From a virus: a stretch of DNA of 40,827 bases. Location of the stretch: positions 1 through 40,827 of the IMG/VR virus record IMGVR_UViG_3300043640_000296, one strand, 5' to 3'. Under the pieces are notes generated by a model. The model had not been told where the DNA came from, made no database searches, and saw only the letters and a list, made by a program, of their open reading frames with translations. A program made the position numbers and the translations under genes. Positions 1 to 40,827 of this stretch are shown piece after piece. Numbering within the stretch: the first letter of the stretch is position 1; each line of letters opens with the position of its first letter.

Positions 1-127
1 ATTTAAAAATTCTCAAGCATTAGTTCAGGGGGTTGCGTAATGCATTTATATCAAATAAGCGCCGAATATGCAGAAATTTTAGATAATCTTTATGATGAGG
101 AGGGCGTCATCAACAATGATGCTCTTA
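1..127. repeat. Terminal direct repeat, copy 1 (identical to 40701..40827)
   Basis: Read directly: bases 1-127 recur exactly at 40701-40827. This fits a circular-contig assembly overlap or terminal redundancy. Bases 1-39 are the 3' end of the ATPase gene. Confidence 0.95.
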
Positions 128-1188: not shown

Positions 1189-1488
1189 ATGCAAATTAAA
1201 CTCGCTGAAGCGTTACTTCGTCGTAAAGAATTACAAGCTAAAGTAGAAATGTTAAAAAAGATTAAAGAAACTCAAGTTTATTATGAAATTCGTGGTCAAC
1301 GTACTAAAGTAACAGAAGGTTTAGAAGACATTAATGCAAATTATCCTAAGCTCGCTGTTTCACAAGTTACTGCAGAATATGATTTTGCAGCACGCCAGTT
1401 ACGTTATGTTGATGCAGCTATTCAGCAAACAAATTGGACTGCAGCAATTGAAGTGCAAGATATGGTAATGGATGATTTCAAAGTTTAA
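1189..1488 (+). CDS. Short DIP1984/septicolysin-like protein
   Basis: 99 aa from ATG 1189. The GTG at 1153 lies inside hairpin 1149-1172, so it is unlikely to be the start. N-terminal KLAEALLRRKELQAKVEMLKK and C-terminal IQQTNWTAAIEV match the signature ends of DIP1984-family proteins as I recall them; the middle is shortened. Confidence 0.5.
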   Translation: MQIKLAEALLRRKELQAKVEMLKKIKETQVYYEIRGQRTKVTEGLEDINANYPKLAVSQVTAEYDFAARQLRYVDAAIQQTNWTAAIEVQDMVMDDFKV

Positions 1489-1586
1489 AAAGATAGCTTA
1501 GGGCGTTATGGGAAAGGCCGCTAGGAGCCTCTAATCCTTAGTGAATTGCAATTCACGTAGCCTGCCCATCACAGTAAAGATGGATT

Positions 1587-1671
1587 TAATGTGTTGCCAA
1601 ATTGGTACAGGCATCTGATATTGATTCAGACGATCTTAGGATCATTGTAGGTTCGATTCCTATCACATATG
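1587..1671 (+). ncRNA. tRNA-like element with long variable arm (degenerate or pseudo tRNA)
   Basis: U8 and A14 are present. D arm GCC(A)/(A)GGC has GG in its loop. Anticodon stem is TCTGA/TCAGA with loop TATTGAT (A33, UUG). Variable arm is GATC-TTAG-GATC. T arm GTAGG-TTCGATT-CCTAT is canonical. The acceptor pairs only 5 of 7 and there is no CCA. Confidence 0.5.
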
Positions 1672-1936
1672 TCTTGGGGACATATAAATCATGAATCCGA
1701 CTATAAGAACATCAGAATTGAGAATATCTGACTAACCGATTAAACCTTTTTATTCTATCGCCATACGTAAGTGCGATGAAAGAAAGGAATTACAACCGAT
1801 TACCGAATATTATATTGACGACTAACCAATCCATGACTAAGCTATCCCTGTTTTATGACTTCCAGTTCAAGCAGGAGCTTCTTTAATCTCGCTGATTAAC
1901 GCTCAATAAAGCTTGTGGCTGGAGTCACCAACTTAG

Positions 1937-1975
1937 AGGAGTAGAATCAGACCGATTTTACTCCTGCTTTTTATT
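1937..1975 (+). terminator. Intrinsic-terminator-like hairpin ending the ORF-free region
   Basis: AGGAGTA (1937-1943) pairs with TACTCCT (1959-1965), then GCTTTTTATTT. The 3' arm can instead pair with the distal GCAGGAG (1871-1877). Confidence 0.5.
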
Positions 1976-2048
1976 TCACTAGTAACGCCTCTTTTTTAAC
2001 CTTATAATATTTGCAAATGGATTTCTAACTTAAATAAGGATATTTAAG

Positions 2049-3493: not shown

Positions 3494-3520
3494 GGCCTGT
3501 TAATTCAGGCCGTTATTTTT
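3494..3520. terminator. Bidirectional terminator between convergent genes
   Basis: GGCCTG (3494-3499), loop TTAATT, CAGGCC (3506-3511). Flanked by an A-run upstream and GTTATTTTT downstream. Confidence 0.65.
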
Positions 3521-4265
3521 AAGATGCAACAAATTCAGTAACAATAACAATACCTGGTGCTCCCGTTGCTCCTGCAATATTAGCTCCTAAAGAACACCCT
3601 CCTGAAGCACCACCACCGTATCCAACCCCAGGACTACCAGGACTAATAATAACATTACTCCTTCCATAAAAAGATGAGCCACCTTGACTACCCATCAATG
3701 GTAATAAACCTGTAGCTCCTGATAAACCCCAACTATTACCTCCACCATTCATAGCAACTAAAACTGTTCCATTAGTTCCATTTATGGGCACTCCTCCTGA
3801 CGTTGCCGTACTCTGAGTAGTTGCTGCACTAGAAGCTGCGCCAGCTCCTAATAGGCCTCCCCCCGCTGTCCAGGTAGAACCGCCATTAATAATTAAAGTG
3901 GTATTACCACCTGCACCACCATTATTATTACCTGATGCTCCAGCTGTACCGCCTGCACCTACTGATCCAATAATTGCCGCAAGATTAGCTGTCCCAGTAA
4001 CTAATAATTTTATATATGAACCCCCCCCACCACCTGACCCAATACCAGTTTGACTAGCTGCTCCAGCTGCACCGCCTGATCCACCTCCTGCTCCTTGTAG
4101 TTCAAAGATAGCATATTGAGTGCCTGCCGTTGGCGTATAAGAAAATGCACCTGCAGCAGAAATAACCTGATTAATAACTTTATTAATAGGAACAGCCGTT
4201 AAACTGATTGTTCCTATAGTGAATGGAAGTGGTAATGTATTATTAATAGCATTATTTGTAGCCAT
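3519..4265 (-). CDS. Glycine-rich tail fibre / receptor-binding protein
   Basis: 248 aa from ATG 4265, SD AAAGGA. The longer ORF start at 4331 overlaps the upstream gene. Long GGxGG tracts (QGAGGGSGGAAGAAS..GSGGGGGSY) resemble phage glycine-rich fibre domains. Confidence 0.7.
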   Translation of the reverse strand: MATNNAINNTLPLPFTIGTISLTAVPINKVINQVISAAGAFSYTPTAGTQYAIFELQGAGGGSGGAAGAASQTGIGSGGGGGSYIKLLVTGTANLAAIIGSVGAGGTAGASGNNNGGAGGNTTLIINGGSTWTAGGGLLGAGAASSAATTQSTATSGGVPINGTNGTVLVAMNGGGNSWGLSGATGLLPLMGSQGGSSFYGRSNVIISPGSPGVGYGGGASGGCSLGANIAGATGAPGIVIVTEFVAS

Positions 4266-4285
4266 GATAACAAATCCTTTTGTTA

Positions 4286-5257
4286 TTAAACTATTGTTAG
4301 ATTCCCTTGAGTACCACCCACCGTTGTCCAAATCGTATTAGCTGTCGTACAAATCAAATCAATAGAATCGAAACGATTTGTAGATGAAACACTTCCGCCG
4401 ACACCCGTTGTACTTGCAAGATTTCCGACCTGAACAATTTGCGATGCATTTTGAGCTATGCGCCAACCGCCTGCACCTTTACCAACAAGACTGATAGCCG
4501 TACCAAATGCTGAGGTTGTTGGTAAAGTTAAAGTAACCAACCCAGCATTACTTGAAACATATCCACTATCTGCGGTCATTGCTTGAGTTGTTCCTGTCAC
4601 TTCCGTCCAACCAATACCAGATCCAGTACCACTAATAGTTATAGTACCTGCCCCATTTGCAATGGAAATACCAGGACCTGCGGTCAATATTGCTGCAACT
4701 GGAATTGCACCTGTCGAACCCACAACAATTTGACCGTTAGTTAATGGTCCAAGCCAGGTAGGAATTCCAGTCAGAGAAGTCACTAATGAAGAACTATTTG
4801 CAGTAGTTAAAGGAGAAATAGCAGTTCCAGCTGCTGCATAATAAGCTAAAGCATTTATTGTACCTGTATTAACACTACCACCTGTTGCTGCAATGGTAAT
4901 TGAGCCTGGAGCATTCGTAACTGTAACCCCTGTTCCCGCTGTAATATTTGCCGGAACAGGATCAGCACCCGTTGATCCAATTAATAAGCCACCATCTACT
5001 AAATTCACAAAATTAAAAGCGGCTGTTCCTTCAGCAATTGGTAAAGAATGGGCCGTGGGACTTGCTATTCCTGTCCCACCATTTACAGGTAAAATAGGAA
5101 CATTCACAAAAGCAGCAGTTCCTAAACCTAAAGTAGTTGTGATATATGCCAGAACTAATGAAGAAGTTGCTTTTTTAGTAACTCCTGACTGGACAATAGC
5201 AAATAGATCGGCTGAACCGACAGCACTTGCAGCAGGAAGCTGAGAAATTGTAGGCAT
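4286..5257 (-). CDS. Tail fibre protein
   Basis: 323 aa. N-terminal MPTISQLPAASAVGSADLFAIVQSGVTKKAT is a common fibre/tailspike N-terminal signature. The rest is Thr/Gly/Ala-rich beta-type sequence. Confidence 0.75.
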   Translation of the reverse strand: MPTISQLPAASAVGSADLFAIVQSGVTKKATSSLVLAYITTTLGLGTAAFVNVPILPVNGGTGIASPTAHSLPIAEGTAAFNFVNLVDGGLLIGSTGADPVPANITAGTGVTVTNAPGSITIAATGGSVNTGTINALAYYAAAGTAISPLTTANSSSLVTSLTGIPTWLGPLTNGQIVVGSTGAIPVAAILTAGPGISIANGAGTITISGTGSGIGWTEVTGTTQAMTADSGYVSSNAGLVTLTLPTTSAFGTAISLVGKGAGGWRIAQNASQIVQVGNLASTTGVGGSVSSTNRFDSIDLICTTANTIWTTVGGTQGNLTIV

Positions 5258-22853: not shown

Positions 22854-22863
22854 CATAAACTTT

Positions 22864-22936
22864 CTGGCATACCTGGACTCGAACCAGGGACCTAACGATT
22901 AACAGTCGTTCTCTCTACCAACTGAGCTATATGCCA
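22864..22936 (-). tRNA. tRNA-Asn (GUU)
   Basis: Hand-folded: acceptor TGGCATA/TATGCCA, anticodon stem AACGA/TCGTT with loop CTGTTAA, T arm CCTGG-TTCGAGT-CCAGG. Confidence 0.85.
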
Positions 22937-22941
22937 ATACT

Positions 22942-23013
22942 TAAGGATGATAGGGATCGAACCTATGACTTTCTGCTCCCAAAGCAGATGCTCTACCTCT
23001 GAGCCACACCCTT
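22942..23013 (-). tRNA. tRNA-Pro (UGG)
   Basis: Acceptor AAGGGTG/CATCCTT (one G.U), D arm GCTC/GAGC, anticodon stem TCTGC/GCAGA with loop TTTGGGA, T arm ATAGG-TTCGATC-CCTAT. Confidence 0.85.
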
Positions 23014-23020
23014 ATAAATC

Positions 23021-23092
23021 TTTAAGGAGATGGGATCGAACCACCATTGTCAAAGTCAAAGTCTGGTGTCCTACCAGTTAGACGATCCTTAA
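23021..23092 (-). tRNA. tRNA-Gln (UUG)
   Basis: Acceptor TTAAGGA/TCCTTAA, anticodon loop CTTTGAC, T arm GGTGG-TTCGATC-CCATC. The anticodon stem has a C-A mismatch at 27:43. Confidence 0.8.
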
Positions 23093-23097
23093 ATAAA

Positions 23098-23174
23098 TGG
23101 TAGCGAGAGTCGGATTTGAACCGACGACCTCTTGATTATGAGCCAAGCGAGCTACCAGACTGCTCTATCTCGCA
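23098..23174 (-). tRNA. tRNA-Met or Ile2 (CAU), CCA encoded
   Basis: D arm GAGC/GCTC, anticodon stem CTTGG/TCAAG with loop CTCATAA, T arm GTCGG-TTCAAAT-CCGAC, 3' ACCA. There is a U:U mismatch at 1:72 and no GGG/CCC initiator stem. Confidence 0.8.
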
Positions 23175-23175
23175 A

Positions 23176-23610
23176 TTACGGTTTAATTAAGCCATTCTCT
23201 AATAAATAAATCAACATCTTTGCGCGTGCATTTGCTTCTTTTTCATCTTTAAAACCATTGGTATAGTTAACCCACCACTCACCATTTAAGTTTCTTCCAC
23301 TTAACAGAAAAGAAATATCTTCTTCACCATCATCTAAAAATGGAATTTCATTAGGGAAATCTTCTGCAAGTTCACCCACAGTATAAGCAGGATAAATTTC
23401 ATAATATTCCTTCTTAAATCCTTCTTCTTCAGAAATACTATGATATTCATGAATATATATCAGACCCCAACAACGTTTAATAGGTTCTCCATTTAGCCCT
23501 ATTGAGTCTTCCATTTTAATATAGATAAAATAAGAAGGACGCGAATATCCTAATTCTTTAATCCTCTTGCTATATTCAACATCACAGACTAAATCCCAAA
23601 GAGTTTTCAT
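23176..23610 (-). CDS. Hypothetical protein (144 aa)
   Basis: ORF ending 2 nt from the tRNA array. The C-terminal EANARAKMLIYLLENGLI motif recurs in many phage proteins of unknown function. Confidence 0.6.
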   Translation of the reverse strand: MKTLWDLVCDVEYSKRIKELGYSRPSYFIYIKMEDSIGLNGEPIKRCWGLIYIHEYHSISEEEGFKKEYYEIYPAYTVGELAEDFPNEIPFLDDGEEDISFLLSGRNLNGEWWVNYTNGFKDEKEANARAKMLIYLLENGLIKP

Positions 23611-23732
23611 TTATCTTCTGCCATTAATTTATTTATATAAAGACAAGCTTCACTTGTGAAATTTAGAAATTGTATATTCTTCCAGAAAGAAAAAAACTTT
23701 CCTTTTCTTTGAATAATATAATAATCACCCAT
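23607..23732 (-). CDS. Small protein (41 aa)
   Basis: ATG 23732. Its TGA overlaps the next ATG (ATGA). It fills the 126-nt gap exactly. Confidence 0.4.
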   Translation of the reverse strand: MGDYYIIQRKGKFFSFWKNIQFLNFTSEACLYINKLMAEDK

Positions 23733-23736
23733 ATAT

Positions 23737-24027
23737 TTAATTCTGTACTTCATTCTTGTCCTCTAATTTCTTTATTCTTTCATGCATTCCATCAATACTC
23801 TTTTCCCATTCCATAAATGCAGTCGTAATGCGATCTTCAAGACGACGATATTCTATTAATCCTGATTGTGCGTATTGATTCTGTGCGAGGAGTGCACATT
23901 GATCTTGTAATTCTCTAAATCTCATTCTCTGATCTCTTAGACCAAGAAACCATCTTTGTATATATGCTTCTTGTAAAACTTCTTGGTCATATTCTTCATT
24001 ATCATGACAATCGCAATTACAGCTCAT
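23737..24027 (-). CDS. Cys-rich (CNCDCH) coiled-coil protein
   Basis: 96 aa from ATG 24027, SD GGAG upstream. The longer track ORF (to 24171) merely reads through tRNA-Thr. Confidence 0.6.
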   Translation of the reverse strand: MSCNCDCHDNEEYDQEVLQEAYIQRWFLGLRDQRMRFRELQDQCALLAQNQYAQSGLIEYRRLEDRITTAFMEWEKSIDGMHERIKKLEDKNEVQN

Positions 24028-24041
24028 TACTTTCTCCAATA

Positions 24042-24116
24042 TGGTGCCCAAGGAAGGAGTCGAACCCACAACCAACTGCTTACAAAGCAGCTGCACTACC
24101 ATTGTGCTACTTGGGC
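24042..24116 (-). tRNA. tRNA-Thr (UGU), CCA encoded
   Basis: Acceptor GCCCAAG/CTTGGGC, D arm GCAC/GTGC, anticodon stem GCTGC/GCAGT with loop TTTGTAA. The T arm GTGGG-TTCGACT-CCTTC has one U:U mismatch and one G.U pair. Confidence 0.75.
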
Positions 24117-24379
24117 TATTTTCTTTTTTGATCAAACATTTTGTGATTCTTCCACCATTCTTGAATATCAAAAGGTAGACGACTTATCAATCCTGTTCCA
24201 TCAACAAATTTACCGGCTTCTAATATAGTTAATATTTGACATAACATATCCGTTACATGATCTGTTTTGGTTTTATAAATATCAGCTTCAACAGCTAATA
24301 TAGTTATATTCTTTATCGCTATATCTTTTATATTTTTCATCGTTAAAGGTAACTCTTCTCTATAATCAGTACATGGCAT
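24116..24379 (-). CDS. Hypothetical protein (87 aa)
   Basis: ORF in the chain. Its start overlaps the stop of the phosphoesterase gene. Confidence 0.55.
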   Translation of the reverse strand: MPCTDYREELPLTMKNIKDIAIKNITILAVEADIYKTKTDHVTDMLCQILTILEAGKFVDGTGLISRLPFDIQEWWKNHKMFDQKRK

Positions 24380-24933
24380 TACAAAAATTCCTTTACTCTA
24401 GCTCTTATAATATCTGCATTGATCGGTGTTAAATTATTTTGTTCGCATGAGACATTAAAATAATTTTCATCTTTAATTTCCATTCTTCCTATTTTACTCA
24501 TAGAGCCTGTTTCATATGGAACCCACATCATTATATTTTTACTATGCAAATGCCCATGCACATTCATAAAACAGCGGCTACCCAAACTATCAGGATGGAC
24601 TGGAACATGACTTAAAATGCAATGTTCCCAAAATATAGTGCCATGCAGTTTATCAAAATGGTGAAAATACTCACTAGCAGGGTACGTATCGTGATTTCCC
24701 AGAATAAGACGTTTAGACCCCTTGAGACGAGCAGCCAATCCAATATTATCTTTACCGAAACAAAAATCACCAAGGTGATACACGCGATCTTTTGCACCGA
24801 CCACATTATTCCAATTATTGATAAGCTGCTCATTCATTTCTTCCACGGTCGCAAAGGGCCGATGTTCTTTCTCATATTCTAAAATATTCTTATGCCCAAA
24901 ATGGGTATCAGCGATAAACCAGGTTTCAGACAT
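24379..24933 (-). CDS. Metallophosphoesterase (calcineurin-like)
   Basis: 184 aa carrying the full motif set: DTHFGH, HLGDF, GNHD, HGHLH. Confidence 0.85.
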   Translation of the reverse strand: MSETWFIADTHFGHKNILEYEKEHRPFATVEEMNEQLINNWNNVVGAKDRVYHLGDFCFGKDNIGLAARLKGSKRLILGNHDTYPASEYFHHFDKLHGTIFWEHCILSHVPVHPDSLGSRCFMNVHGHLHSKNIMMWVPYETGSMSKIGRMEIKDENYFNVSCEQNNLTPINADIIRARVKEFL

Positions 24934-25187
24934 TAGTTAAATCCATCAATAAATCTTTTCATAGAAGAATAATCATCAACAGTTAGAATCAATAAAGCAC
25001 AAGCTTCAGATGACTGAATAGTCTCTGGATGTTTTGCTAGATCACATATCATAGTAGTTGCGGCATTAATAAACGCCTTATCAGGCTGAGATAATTTATT
25101 TCCACAAATATCAAAATTATATTGTTTATATGCATTTTCTTTACAATATTGAAGATATTCATCTCTGTTCATTTCTGCTTTATTCAT
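24933..25187 (-). CDS. Hypothetical protein (84 aa)
   Basis: ORF bridging the RNA ligase and phosphoesterase genes, overlapping both ends. Confidence 0.55.
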   Translation of the reverse strand: MNKAEMNRDEYLQYCKENAYKQYNFDICGNKLSQPDKAFINAATTMICDLAKHPETIQSSEACALLILTVDDYSSMKRFIDGFN

Positions 25188-26007
25188 TGTATGCGCTCAT
25201 TATAGATTTAATAAAAAAGTAGATCTGCCTACCAAGTGCTTTCTTCTCAAGTCGCAATTCATCATCATTCGTTGCTTTGAACTGCTTTTCGTCTTCCAAG
25301 TCCTGCACGTAACCAGAGCAAATACTACTAATCGATGCAGGGTAATCCCTAATATATTTTTCATCACGAGAAAGCAGCTTCTCAAGACGCAAGGGCTGCA
25401 ATAAATGCGACACATCCATCTCTTGTTTGTCACAAACTCTCTTCGTTTTTTCATTCCACTTTACTTCTTCGAGATCAAAGACATTCTTGTAGAATTGTCC
25501 ATCCAACTCTACAACAACACCTTCTGGCTTCATAAATCCTGACACAAGGAATGAACCTTCTGTCTTCAACTGTTCCATTGCATTAGTGACTGCATCAAGA
25601 GAAATAGCGCCTTTGTAGAGCACAGGAACAATCGTTACTTGGTCTGGCAACTGTTTGCCTACCCATCTACGCCAATTAAACAGGCACAACGTCTTCTGCT
25701 TTAATCCTTCACCAGAATTAATACCGGGACCGCACCATTCACCATAATGGCGTCCGGGTCCTAATGTAGCATAAAGATCTAATTGATTTTCCATTACCCA
25801 TTTACAAAAACCATAATTATCATCTTCAATAGTCAACCAACGATTTCTCGATCCTGCTTTTATATGAAAATTTGTACCTAAATCTCCGCAATCGATTTCT
25901 TCTATAAGTATTTGCGCATTACTCCCGTGTAGTTTCTGAGTAATACTCATGTAAAGCTTACCAATATGCAGGATCTTTCCAAATGATTTAAATTCTAAAT
26001 CTTCCAT
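25180..26007 (-). CDS. ATP-dependent RNA ligase, T4 Rnl2-like adenylyltransferase domain
   Basis: 275 aa. Motif I QKLHGSN (T4 Rnl2 has EKIHGTN), motif III-like YGEWCGPGI, motif IV EGVVVE, motif V-like FYKNV. Confidence 0.8.
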   Translation of the reverse strand: MEDLEFKSFGKILHIGKLYMSITQKLHGSNAQILIEEIDCGDLGTNFHIKAGSRNRWLTIEDDNYGFCKWVMENQLDLYATLGPGRHYGEWCGPGINSGEGLKQKTLCLFNWRRWVGKQLPDQVTIVPVLYKGAISLDAVTNAMEQLKTEGSFLVSGFMKPEGVVVELDGQFYKNVFDLEEVKWNEKTKRVCDKQEMDVSHLLQPLRLEKLLSRDEKYIRDYPASISSICSGYVQDLEDEKQFKATNDDELRLEKKALGRQIYFFIKSIMSAYNE

Positions 26008-31080: not shown

Positions 31081-31364
31081 GTGAATTAACAGATGAACAA
31101 AAAGCAGAAATGTATAAAAAAGCTGATAAAGCTAATTTCACAACGGAAATACAAATAAGAAATGTAGGTGATTCAGATGATATTTATTACTTTAATAAGG
31201 CAAAGAAGCATGTAGGAAGCGGGTTTATTCCCAAAGAAGGCGAACGCAAAGGACATATATGTGTTACACGCTGTCCGGGCTGTGAGCGTGAAAACTATGC
31301 AATGAATGTGCTGAGTGGTTATTGCACATGGTGTCCGTTTAATGCTAATGGGGAAAGTAATTAA
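31077..31364 (+). CDS. Zinc-ribbon protein (95 aa)
   Basis: CVTRCPGC...CTWCP gives four Cys in two CxxC-type pairs. Confidence 0.55.
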   Translation: MSELTDEQKAEMYKKADKANFTTEIQIRNVGDSDDIYYFNKAKKHVGSGFIPKEGERKGHICVTRCPGCERENYAMNVLSGYCTWCPFNANGESN

Positions 31365-31864
31365 TGGCATTGAATAATAGGCAAATAGAAGATGCTGAAC
31401 TACGAGCTAAAGCCTATAAATTATTTGATGAGCGCGGTCTTTATATCCTTGTTAAACCTAATGGCTCTAAACTATTTCGTATGAAATATCGTTTTGACGG
31501 CAAAGAATATAGTTTATCGTTTGGTAGGTTTGGAGATATTACACTCGGTGAAGCACAAAAAATGGCAAGTGATGCGCGTAATCAATTAGCCTATGGAACA
31601 AACCCTAATGAAACTAAAAAGGTATTTAGACGCATGACAAAAGTGAGAATCAGGCACGAAGCAGAAAATCTATTATTATCACCTCTTAAAATATTACGTA
31701 ATCATCTAGAACATTTAGATGCGCAAGTGGAACACATGCAATCTAAAAAACGTGATATTGAGAATCAACTTGATTATGTTCAATGGGATTTGAACGAGAC
31801 ATTAGGCTTTATGGAACAAATTAAACAATCGTTAAAATATTTAGAAAAGGCTACTAAAGAATGA
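31364..31864 (+). CDS. Stand-alone integrase arm-type DNA-binding domain (DUF4102-like) fused to a coiled coil
   Basis: Residues 1-85 (AKAYKLFDERGLYILVKPNGSKLFRMKYRFDGKEYSLSFGRFGDITLGEAQKMASDARNQLAYGTNP) parallel the N-terminus of P4-type integrases. There is no SAM-like or catalytic domain; the C-terminus is an 80-aa helical tail. Confidence 0.7.
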   Translation: MALNNRQIEDAELRAKAYKLFDERGLYILVKPNGSKLFRMKYRFDGKEYSLSFGRFGDITLGEAQKMASDARNQLAYGTNPNETKKVFRRMTKVRIRHEAENLLLSPLKILRNHLEHLDAQVEHMQSKKRDIENQLDYVQWDLNETLGFMEQIKQSLKYLEKATKE

Positions 31865-39451: not shown

Positions 39452-39808
39452 ATGAACTACGCATATACAATTCCGCATTATCTCTATGAAAAGCCTATTT
39501 ATAGTTATCTCGAAACTCTTATTGATAATGGCTTACATGTTTATGATCTTGATGAAGAAGAAAGAGAAGATCTAGTTGTTCGCATCATACAAGTTCTTGG
39601 CACTGATGCTTATAATGTCATTATTGGTTCAGATGATTTTGATAAAACTCTTAATTATTTCTCTAAATTCTTACAAACAGCAGATCCAAGTGATCTATAT
39701 GATCTTGGCTGTCAAATGCGAGATAACGCACTCGATCATTACAATTACGATCTTGAACAACTCTTTAATGAAATTCTTGAAACTAAAACTAGGGGACAAA
39801 TAGCATGA
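39452..39808 (+). CDS. Acidic early protein (118 aa)
   Basis: Start taken at ATG 39452, SD AAAGGAA. The track ORF starts upstream at 39404. Its stop overlaps the ATPase start. Confidence 0.55.
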   Translation: MNYAYTIPHYLYEKPIYSYLETLIDNGLHVYDLDEEEREDLVVRIIQVLGTDAYNVIIGSDDFDKTLNYFSKFLQTADPSDLYDLGCQMRDNALDHYNYDLEQLFNEILETKTRGQIA

Positions 39809-40740
39809 TGATTCGCAAAGCAGAACGACGACAAGCAAAGTTACGACTAGGTATCTCAGGTGCTTCAGGTAGTGGTAAAACTTGGTCAGCATTAGAAATT
39901 GCAACAGGAATGGGCGGCAAAATCGGTATGATTGATACAGAAGCAGGCCGTGGTGAACTTTACGGGAATGATTTTGAGTATGACATTATACGTTTAGAAG
40001 CGCCTTACAGCGTAGAACGCTACATTGAAGCGATTAAAATGTTTGAAAAAGCAGGTTATGACATTCTCATCATTGATAGCTTGTCTCATGCTTGGGTCGG
40101 GGAAGGTGGAGTTTTATCAGTCGTTGATAAAGCTGGTAATAATAGCTTTACTCAAGGCTGGAAAGCAGGAACACCAAAGCATAATTCTTTGATTGAAGCC
40201 ATGGTCACAAGTTCTCTACATATCATTACAACACTTCGTGTAAAGACTGAGTATGTGGTTGAAAAGAATGATCGAGGCAAAGCTGAACCACGTAAGATCG
40301 GTTTATCACCTGTCCAGCGTGATGGTTTAGAATATGAGTTCACCGTGTTCATGGATATTAGCCAGGAACATACAGCACATGTCACTAAAGATAATACTCA
40401 ATTGTTTGATCAACAGTATTTAAAACCTTCTAAAGCAATGGGTGAAAAGTTAATAAGCTGGTTAAATGAAGGTCTAGATTCTGAAGAAGAGTTTGTGAAT
40501 GTGACTCTTCCTTCATTAATCACCGAGATTGATAGCTGTGAAGATCTTAATTCTTTAAGACTTAAATTCTCTGAGCTTTATCACCTTTATTCAACTGAGT
40601 TTCCCGACAGAATTGAAACTCTCGTTGCGGCAAAAGATAAACGTAAAGAAGAGCTTCTTTCAGAAGAATCTGATTTTGTGACACCTGTTATCAAAACAGG
40701 ATTTAAAAATTCTCAAGCATTAGTTCAGGGGGTTGCGTAA
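39805..40740 (+). CDS. Sak4-like AAA_24 (RecA-fold) recombination ATPase
   Basis: 311 aa. Walker A GISGASGSGKTWS and Walker B ILIIDSLSH, then LHIITTLRVKTEY and GLEYEFTVFMDI, typical of phage Sak4/AAA_24 proteins. Confidence 0.8.
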   Translation: MMIRKAERRQAKLRLGISGASGSGKTWSALEIATGMGGKIGMIDTEAGRGELYGNDFEYDIIRLEAPYSVERYIEAIKMFEKAGYDILIIDSLSHAWVGEGGVLSVVDKAGNNSFTQGWKAGTPKHNSLIEAMVTSSLHIITTLRVKTEYVVEKNDRGKAEPRKIGLSPVQRDGLEYEFTVFMDISQEHTAHVTKDNTQLFDQQYLKPSKAMGEKLISWLNEGLDSEEEFVNVTLPSLITEIDSCEDLNSLRLKFSELYHLYSTEFPDRIETLVAAKDKRKEELLSEESDFVTPVIKTGFKNSQALVQGVA

Positions 40741-40827
40741 TGCATTTATATCAAATAAGCGCCGAATATGCAGAAATTTTAGATAATCTTTATGATGAGG
40801 AGGGCGTCATCAACAATGATGCTCTTA
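40701..40827. repeat. Terminal direct repeat, copy 2 (identical to 1..127)
   Basis: Exact 127-nt match to the window start. It holds the ATPase stop codon and the first 88 nt of the Gp157-like gene again. Confidence 0.95.

Follow-up and report, generated by a model that had tools for sequence, protein, structure and literature searches.

A conserved structured RNA with two pseudoknots and an exchangeable tRNA-shaped slot, encoded directly downstream of DUF6847 genes in phages

What is encoded at positions 1489-2048 of the virus record IMGVR_UViG_3300043640_000296, an interval of 560 nt that precedes the gene for a 239-aa fibre-like protein (2049-2768) and holds no substantial open reading frame (ORF)? 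The first-pass annotation of the window (by which we mean the whole 40,827-nt stretch of DNA that was analysed) had described this interval as ORF-free and GC-rich in its left part, and had read it either as one or more structured noncoding RNAs or as a riboswitch-like leader of gene 2049-2768, with a replication or partition locus as the alternative. Both descriptive points hold, as the longest ORF in the interval is 36 aa (1776-1886) and the GC content is 0.42-0.44 over approximately 1430-1650 versus 0.30-0.37 on either side. The structured RNA reading also stands: approximately 355 of the 560 nt make up one conserved RNA domain closed by a long-range helix. We are highly confident that this domain, at 1492-1846 on the plus strand, folds independently and is a member of a structured RNA family, which in its close homologues follows a gene of the DUF6847 family.

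The RNA spans 355 nt (1492-1846, +), with the 3' end of its closing helix, P1, marking the end of the conserved RNA, beyond which homologous loci diverge. Its parts are listed here in order.

1492-1501 (+): 5' strand of P1, GAUAGCUUAG, pairing with 1837-1846.
1502-1507 (+): junction loop GGCGUU between P1 and helix P1b, opposite GA at 1835-1836.
1508-1512 and 1830-1834 (+): P1b, AUGGG with UCCAU, recognised by compensatory pairs.
1515-1538 (+): PK1, an H-type pseudoknot; stem S1 joins AGGC (1515-1518) and GCCU (1527-1530), stem S2 joins AGGA (1523-1526) and UCCU (1535-1538).
1539-1559 (+): hairpin H2, containing a 16-nt palindrome at 1541-1556, with apical loop UGCA (1547-1550) and a bulged G1557.
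1562-1583 (+): PK2; S1 joins CUG (1562-1564) and CAG (1572-1574), S2 (also H3) joins CCAUC (1566-1570) and GAUGG (1579-1583).
1586-1673 (+): degenerate tRNA-like module, found by ARAGORN and the Rfam tRNA model.
1667-1685 (+): hairpin AUAUGUC/GACAUAU, identical in locus L105; its first nucleotides are also the last of the tRNA-like module.
1690-1829 (+): 3' domain, delimited by alignment of 3' domains, with six CCGAYU-type words and a variable hairpin at 1745-1787.
1697-1702, 1728-1733 (CUGACU), 1736-1741, 1796-1801, 1803-1808 and 1818-1823 (ACGACU) (+): the six CCGAYU-type words, W1 to W6.
1824-1829 (+): AACCAA, the end of the 3' domain, right after the sixth word.
1837-1846 (+): 3' strand of P1, CUAAGCUAUC, pairing with 1492-1501.

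The evidence that this fold is real comes from compensatory change among homologues. A close set (about 28 distinct) was gathered from viral, metagenome and genome collections by an exact 15-22-nt DNA pattern, taken from the conserved block right after the stop codons of IMG/VR DUF6847 homologues; one member (L136) is a contig of Legionella maceachernii ATCC 35300. Of 27 full-length homologues, 25 have the long-range P1 helix (8-15 bp) and the truncated loci L144 and L156 lack it; its sequence differs among homologues (GAUAGCUGAAU/AUUCAGCUAUC, GGACAAUCUAG/CUAGGUUGUCC, ACUAAUUCAG/CUGAAUUAGU, AAACCACUUAG/CUAAGUGGUUU and others). On alignment A4, which joins the 5' and 3' ends, 96.5% of the cells of P1 and P1b are paired and 13 of the 16 pairs have changed on both sides (57 cells), values that none of 500 shuffles reached; pairing falls to 21-45% when the partner strand is slid by 1-3 columns. 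Compensatory pairs on A4 number 9 of 10 in P1 and 4 of 6 in P1b (for example, AACGGC/GCCGUU and UACGAG/CUCGUA). The 5' domain behaves in the same way on alignment A3, with 99.0% of cells paired, 11 of 19 pairs compensatory and, again, 0 of 500 shuffles reaching the observed values, and within it compensatory change affects 7 of the 8 pairs of H2. At one position of H2, G-U is the commonest pair (14 sequences); such a pair would be a C-A mismatch on the opposite strand, so that the plus strand is the structured one. An unconstrained minimum free energy fold of 1491-1850 also recovers P1 (z = -2.67).

The pattern that selected the close set lies inside PK1, and the covariation of PK1 consequently depends on more diverse loci. 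These were obtained with the divergent DUF6847 copy of locus L088 as query, adding 45 loci whose copies are 44-100% identical to it. In nearly all of them, a closing helix of 9-30 bp and unrelated sequence stands just downstream of the gene (30 bp in L180; 28 in L183 and L187; 27 in L197; 24 in L188; 20 in L190), and the span in relatives is 270-407 nt. These loci share one plan, (G)GCG(U/A) - P1b - (A)AAGG - PK1 - H2 - CGU(U/A)GC, followed by a 3' domain with CCGAHT words, and the (G)GCG(U/A) junction is likewise kept in class A/C homologues. In the 700 nt after the DUF6847 stop codon, the words occur at 5.4/kb versus 0.51/kb elsewhere in the same loci, with three or more words in 33 of 41 distinct loci. 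When the diverse members are aligned to R1, a covariance model of the 5' domain (alignment A7), 95.6% of cells are paired and 17 of 21 pairs are compensatory, including 4 of 4 in PK1 S2 (which is 100% paired) and 5 of 5 in H3. PK1 S1 lies outside model R1 and is still 96.7% paired on A7, with one compensatory pair formally counted; several of our statements on the diverse loci were read by eye off the sequences, among them the S1 stems of distant members (AAGGU/ACCUU, AAGCA/UGCUU, AAGUG/CACUU and AAGGG/CCCUU). PK1 thus has what defines an H-type pseudoknot, namely two stems, pairing of a loop with sequence outside it, and covariation, while PK2 S1 alternates between CUG/CAG and CAG/CUG among homologues. 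Covariation analysis on homologues had been proposed in the first-pass annotation, and the outcome is extensive compensatory change in the helices.

Several smaller features noticed previously can now be placed within this fold. The hairpin ATATGTC/GACATAT at 1667-1685 covaries in relatives (AAUUGCC/GGCGAUU in L102, UGCC/GGCA in L087). ATCGC/GCGAT exists, at the point where relatives have a complementary hairpin of variable length, and its position needs correction to 1757-1761/1773-1777; homologues, on the other hand, have nothing equivalent to TCAGA/TCTGA at 1712-1731. The repeated words do exist and are locally clustered, with three of the seven window-wide matches to CCGAYTR falling inside 1697-1802; W2-W3 and W4-W5 form close pairs, and W1 and W6 stand singly. 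Other candidate interactions were considered and dropped: a K-turn where P1 meets P1b (the loops have the wrong sizes and sequences for one), a helix between the conserved AAGG and the 3' AACC (by eye, no covariation between them), pairing of the anticodon loop with the CCGAYU words (only UUGGA loops fit), and the simple stem AGGCC/GGCCU given by RNAalifold, in place of which the pseudoknot is better for L081 and the diverse loci.

The perfect 16-nt palindrome that had been remarked upon, GTGAATTGCAATTCAC, is present at 1541-1556 and belongs to H2. The apical tetranucleotide of this hairpin is self-complementary in 28 of 29 distinct hairpins (GGCC, GUAC, GCGC, UGCA, ACGU, UCGA or GAUC), and the sole exception, GUGC, becomes so once G-U pairs are allowed. 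A hairpin alone does not require this property, for which the chance is 1/16 per independent loop, and since the stem sequences of H2 differ, a sequence-specific DNA-binding protein is unlikely to be the reason. The simplest reading is that H2 would join two RNA molecules as a kissing-loop (or extended-duplex) homodimer. Kissing loops help to assemble the OLE, ROOL and GOLLD RNAs (PMC12286853).

Between H3 and the 3' domain lies a variable stretch, which we refer to as the slot. In the window it holds the tRNA-like element with a canonical T arm that had been picked out by eye, and that ARAGORN calls as an 88-nt tRNA-Gln(UUG) at 1586-1673; the Rfam tRNA model scores it at 29.9 bits against a gathering score of 29 in a 751-nt search, and a gathering scan of the whole window misses it. 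The module has the canonical tRNA order but is degenerate in several ways: a long variable arm accompanies a Gln anticodon (UUG), positions 1-72 and 2-71 of the acceptor are U-U and A-A (leaving a 5-bp stem), the anticodon loop UAUUGAU has A33 and not U33, and the 3' strand overlaps the hairpin at 1667-1685. ARAGORN finds tRNAs in the slot of 20 of 27 close homologues, with anticodons UUG (9), UUU, GAU, UAU, AAU, GUU, UGU and UUA. Many of these nested tRNAs share the scaffold ACUGUAGCUCAAUUGGUAGAGC-A-CAAGC-loop-GCUUG and differ in the 7-nt loop alone, position 33 included, which is C in L147, L155 and L157. The nested tRNAs of L105 and L147 carry the ochre-suppressor anticodon UUA. Among more distant members, L177, L180, L187, L195, L199 and L203 have cloverleaf tRNAs in the slot (39-64 bits, Rfam RF00005), and L188-L194 and the cultured Vibrio phages PS32B.1 and 1.264.O have no T arm there. 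In four further members, the Rfam YrlA model matches the module at 30-41 bits (E 2e-6 to 5e-3), in the order T arm, closed acceptor-like hairpin, D arm GUAGCUCAAUUGGUAGAGC:

L162:1930-2001: sub-threshold Rfam YrlA match.
L183:1921-2026: sub-threshold Rfam YrlA match.
L185:1148-1255: sub-threshold Rfam YrlA match.
L197:1916-2021: sub-threshold Rfam YrlA match.

These YrlA-type modules are tRNA mimics used outside a Ro context. We therefore take the tRNA-shaped module to be an exchangeable insert rather than a component of the conserved core.

The gene directly upstream of the RNA is the other constant of the locus.

1189-1488 (+): DUF6847 gene (PF20935; DIP1984-like), Pfam E 4.5e-7.

It also matches NCBIfam DIP1984 at E 1.6e-7, below the family cut-off. 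A co-oriented DUF6847 homologue stands immediately upstream in 28 of 28 loci that were found by the DNA pattern alone, the gap from its stop codon to the RNA being 4-80 nt, and 550 nt in one locus; this range of distances (approximately 4 to 550 nt) led us to reject a role of the RNA as a stimulator of frameshifting or read-through. The gene that follows the RNA varies, and may be the 239-aa fibre-like gene, an endolysin, a VRR-NUC-like gene, a membrane protein or a convergent gene; in six loci, a homologue of the 239-aa gene is instead located upstream of DUF6847. A search with model R1 of 79 loci that surround homologues of the 239-aa gene gave no hits, and the RNA is therefore not linked to that gene. 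DUF6847 homologues fall into 1598 clusters (90% identity, E <= 0.001), encode approximately 100 aa and mostly lie on contigs of 35-43 kb. They include genes of 13 cultured Vibrio phages (Zobellviridae: PS32B.x, PS35B.x and 1.264.O). In the two of these that were examined, PS32B.1 and 1.264.O, an SF4 (superfamily 4) helicase gene is followed by DUF6847 and then by an unannotated gap of 300-370 nt, which contains P1, P1b, PK1, H2 and six (A)CAUCCGAAU words at a spacing of approximately 15 nt, and no tRNA.

The pair of DUF6847 and RNA lies inside a replication/recombination block in all three of the unrelated phage backbones whose neighbours were checked. The window is one such case, with the locus set among Gp157, DUF669 and AAA_24 genes; in L088, the pair stands between PolA/PAPS-reductase genes and clamp loader, UvsY, gp32 and RecA genes. 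We note in addition that the L088 DNA polymerase A gene (L088:1030-4617) contains an intein, and that the clamp-loader gene beside the pair (L088:6667-8511) has a LAGLIDADG domain, suggesting an intein there as well. As for the DUF6847 protein itself, the AlphaFold2 (AF2) model is a helical hairpin (helices 5-39 and 57-84; mean predicted local distance difference test score, pLDDT, 72). The sole relative in a sequence search of the PDB is 3kdq, a DIP1984-like protein with no assigned function, and the next fold matches are to the tRNA-binding arm of seryl-tRNA synthetases, an N-terminal coiled coil (E ~1, probability <=0.95, TMq 0.6-0.69), a resemblance of the model that gives a weak lead. PADLOC returned no match for DUF6847. 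On balance, we consider a functional pairing of the RNA with DUF6847 likely.

The remainder of the interval, downstream of the RNA, contains a second and much less widely sampled element.

1847 onward (+): spacer after the RNA, where homologous loci diverge past the P1 3' strand.
1871-1967 (+): element 2, an outer helix of GCAGGAG (1871-1877) with CUCCUGC (1961-1967) around AGCUU (1876-1880)/AAGCU (1909-1913) and a conserved UAAUCUCGCUGAUUA.
1937-1975 (+): intrinsic-terminator-like hairpin AGGAGUA..UACUCCU, a 12-pair stem followed by the U run GCTTTTTATT, found by consensus match.
1990-2048 (+): block ahead of the 239-aa gene, similar in sequence to L105 and L149, CCTTATAAT ... TAAATAAGGATATTTA.

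The terminator-like hairpin at 1937-1965 with its T run, reported previously, is the best such site within 1100-2900. The outer helix of element 2 competes with it, so that the two mutually exclusive folds proposed for GCAGGAG (1871-1877) and CTCCTGC (1961-1967) are real in the sequence; the same plan with different helices occurs in the two closest relatives, L105 and L149, alone (GACCAUGG/CCAUGGUC and GGUGGGAG/CUCUCACC), and three sequences cannot establish a switch. Going by these three sequences, element 2 (1871-1975) may serve the 239-aa gene at 2049 as a leader or be a regulated terminator, and the block 1990-2048 is probably the promoter and ribosome-binding site of that gene. A promoter scan of 1100-2900, in which 1990-2048 was not scored, gave nothing better than shuffled sequence.

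The first 127 nt of the window (1-127) are an exact repeat of its last 127 (40701-40827), which makes it a circular or complete assembly of approximately 40.7 kb; across this terminal overlap, the AAA_24 operon (39805-40740) runs on into the Gp157 gene at 40-531. Judged by its portal and terminase, the phage is P22-like; searches of deposited phage genomes by DNA similarity, in near and distant modes, gave no match to the window. Five canonical tRNAs (Asn, Pro, Gln, Met and Thr) are located in 22863-26007 (-), beside a phosphoesterase (24379-24933) and an RNA ligase (25180-26007), and include a canonical tRNA-Gln(UUG) at 23020-23093. This cluster looks like a tRNA-repair module, which suggests that the phage is exposed to tRNA-cleaving host defences. 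Elsewhere, a 166-aa ORF at 31364-31864 (+) encodes an integrase Arm-DNA-binding domain alone (PF13356; phrog_3423), with no catalytic integrase part after it, and two genes with overlapping ends at 3519-5257 (-) code for fibre-like proteins rich in glycine (the first with PF21722 Gly_rich_2) in a region of locally high GC (0.45-0.49) and strongly negative GC skew. Between the DUF669 and DUF6847 genes, at 1148-1173, there is a 10-pair GC-rich hairpin that scores as a minus-strand terminator, where no minus-strand gene ends; it may set DUF6847 and the RNA apart as a transcription unit of their own.

Given its position in replication modules, the locus could conceivably act at the level of DNA, as an origin, initiator or partition site in which CCGAYT words would serve as iterons bound by a phage protein, the palindrome would be a cruciform or a protein-binding site, and the RNA-like features would be secondary. 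The location inside a replication/recombination module in all three backbones, the clustering of short repeated words and the lack of ORFs are all consistent with this. It accounts poorly, however, for compensatory changes with G-U pairs that are seen on the plus strand alone and in helices up to 350 nt apart, for the presence of two pseudoknots, and for nested real tRNAs, which imply that the strand is transcribed. The words are 6-7 nt long at spacings of 7-16 nt, are not helically phased and lie inside a covarying RNA, and the P1 and H2 stems have unrelated sequences from member to member, which leaves no common site for a sequence-specific DNA-binding protein; the cumulative minimum of GC skew, a test confounded by gene orientation, falls at approximately 29-39 kb, away from the locus. 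We therefore regard a DNA-level origin as improbable, and keep open an additional DNA-level role for the repeated words, which by itself leaves the strand-specific G-U covariation, the pseudoknots and the nested tRNAs unexplained. A less remote but still doubtful alternative is an anti-defence cassette, in which the RNA would chiefly serve to express, stabilise or show a tRNA or mimic whose fast-changing anticodon loop replaces, or decoys for, host tRNAs under attack by anticodon nucleases. Such a cassette fits the occurrence of at least eight anticodons on one tRNA scaffold, the noncanonical position 33 (A33 in the window, C33 in the three homologues named above), the YrlA-type mimics in the same slot of other members and the phage's tRNA cluster beside an RNA ligase and a phosphoesterase. 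It fits less well with the several members, including the examined Vibrio phages, that keep P1, PK1, H2 and the words without any tRNA-like module, and DUF6847 has no PADLOC match.

The remaining alternatives we reject. That the locus is a plain tRNA or pseudo-tRNA gene with a leader, a spacer, a terminator and the promoter of the next gene would explain the ARAGORN and Rfam calls at 1586-1673 and the good terminator at 1937-1975, yet conservation and covariation are strongest in parts other than the tRNA (P1, P1b, PK1, H2, PK2 and the words), a long-range helix encloses it, and the family persists without any tRNA; we give this account almost no weight. We are equally sceptical of a phage attachment site (attP) with a tRNA-derived core and with the words as arm-type sites of an integrase: tRNA-like sequence, short repeats and the Arm-DNA-binding ORF at 31364-31864 could be read in this way, but no integrase is adjacent, the Legionella maceachernii contig has an undivided locus flanked on each side by phage-like ORFs, one tRNA scaffold bears varied anticodons in place of matches to different host tRNA bodies, and the covariation is at the RNA level. 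The other reading of the first-pass annotation, a cis-acting riboswitch or attenuator leader of gene 2049-2768, draws on co-orientation with that gene, on the two exclusive folds ending in a terminator (1871-1975) and on retention of the outer helix in L105 and L149, both of which have the 239-aa gene. For the main RNA it fails, since DUF6847 is constant upstream (28 of 28) whereas the downstream gene differs or is convergent in most loci, the 239-aa gene's homologue precedes DUF6847 in the six loci mentioned above, and no riboswitch family matches; element 2, for its part, is known from three sequences alone. We consider a leader function very improbable.

The explanation that we consider probable as a whole is a conserved RNA that works together with DUF6847; our best guess at its role is a scaffold for a Y RNA-like ribonucleoprotein (RNP). 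The RNA would be transcribed as the 3' end of the (early) transcription unit of DUF6847, with P1 serving as a stalk for processing and stability, which at the 20-30 bp reached in some relatives would be enough for RNase III. The H2 loops would join two RNAs as a kissing-loop homodimer, and the six words, evenly organised and presumably single-stranded, would form a multi-copy binding platform for the DUF6847 protein, or possibly for a host factor, giving the RNP. This particle could then act like a Y RNA particle, with its end stem and protein platform displaying the tRNA-shaped module to host enzymes that recognise tRNAs; genuine tRNAs in the slot would be freed by RNase P and by processing of their 3' ends. 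The role as a Y RNA-like scaffold is a tentative suggestion. More doubtful still is the fullest version, a widespread and unrecognised phage RNP in which a dimerising, doubly pseudoknotted RNA carries several DUF6847 proteins, coiled coils resembling a tRNA-synthetase arm, on its six words and has an exchangeable slot, filled by a tRNA, an anticodon variant or a Y RNA-type mimic, that hijacks or decoys host tRNA-recognising enzymes, which might be anticodon nucleases, RNA-decay factors or RNA-repair factors.

Several observations weigh against this explanation or parts of it. Three DUF6847 loci (L169, L175 and L204) have no CCGAHT words downstream of the gene, although L169 and L204 have words elsewhere; they may have a different arrangement, or may have lost the RNA. 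U runs after P1 are not universal among relatives. Because many members have no tRNA module (L188-L194 and the Vibrio phages among them), mimicry of a tRNA cannot be essential to the core function. All YrlA hits stay well short of the 69-bit gathering score and are confined to the middle module, and no Ro/TROVE gene was found in the L088 neighbourhood (L088 being the same contig as L162) or among the scanned window ORFs. Within the close set, PK1 S1 and the words hardly vary, and covariation of S1 was seen mainly by eye. At E ~1, the resemblance of the DUF6847 model to seryl-tRNA synthetases could be generic coiled-coil similarity. Binding of the RNA by the DUF6847 protein is inferred solely from strict gene adjacency, and the presumed transcript ends, processing and stability of the RNA are likewise deduced from sequence.

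How does this RNA compare with known systems? At E <= 10, Rfam matches the region with the tRNA model alone, an additional IS009 hit being spurious noise, so that the Rfam scan suggested previously finds no family for the rest of the RNA. One close comparison is with YrlA and other bacterial Y RNAs (Rfam RF02553; Chen et al. 2014), which are 80-130 nt long and also occur in phages (PMC4201824). As in those RNAs, the two ends of the molecule form a long stem (here P1/P1b), and a protein-associated part is combined in modular fashion with a tRNA-shaped module. The present RNA differs in its length of 300-400 nt, in its two pseudoknots, dimerisation-type hairpin and six-word 3' domain, all absent from Y RNAs, and in its partner gene, which is DUF6847 here and Ro60/Rsr there; in addition, there is no RF02553 hit in the window, where the module has normal tRNA order. 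ROOL and GOLLD are large, ornate phage RNAs that assemble by kissing loops, ROOL having no identified protein partner (Kretsch et al. 2025, PMC12286853). They resemble the present RNA in being encoded by phages or prophages, associated with tRNAs and multiply pseudoknotted, and their kissing loops have a parallel in the self-complementary H2 loops, for which oligomerisation is predicted. They are, however, longer (more than 500-800 nt versus 300-400 nt), their tRNAs are merely nearby rather than inside a closing helix, and ROOL has no counterpart of the obligate protein-gene partner; the ROOL and GOLLD models of Rfam match neither the region (E <= 10) nor 15 relatives (E <= 1). Compared with ordinary phage tRNA genes (RF00005), the tRNA here is an optional insert, and the copy in the window is degenerate.

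In the ColE1 plasmid, Rop, a small helical-hairpin protein, is encoded beside the long structured RNA II in the replication region. The parallel is one of analogy alone, as there is no sequence or family relationship and no sign of an antisense partner or of primer function. Three other systems were considered and rejected as relatives: type III toxin-antitoxin RNAs (here the RNA follows the gene, which encodes a helical hairpin, the short words sit in a complex fold and PADLOC gives no hit), retron msr-msd (P1 does provide a terminal inverted repeat, but no reverse transcriptase domain occurs among the scanned window ORFs), and the VIPR vrRNA system (YNNGG pentamer repeats and a different protein). 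We found no description of a DUF6847-linked RNA in the literature searched; an unnamed entry in large structured-RNA catalogues such as PMC10690425 could overlap with it. The modules are thus known (tRNA, YrlA-like mimic, H-type pseudoknot), and it is their assembly and the partnership with DUF6847 that is not in Rfam 15. As it fails the tests for YrlA/Y RNAs, ROOL/GOLLD, riboswitches, type III systems, retrons and attP and is absent from Rfam 15, we rate it as a new RNA/RNP class.

If this is true, DUF6847, a domain without an assigned function, gains an RNA partner, and a new class of large structured phage RNA takes its place beside ROOL and GOLLD; unlike those, it has an obvious protein handle and cultured hosts (the Vibrio phages PS32B.x and 1.264.O), which makes it directly testable. 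The H2 loop, self-complementary in nearly all members, predicts that the RNA forms homodimers in nature. The family also accounts for a recurrent "gap" of 300-400 nt in the annotated replication modules of many phages. Finally, its interchangeable module brings phage tRNAs, anticodon-switching tRNAs and Y RNA-type mimics together on one scaffold, and so bears on why phages carry tRNAs and on the role of bacterial Y RNA-like mimics.

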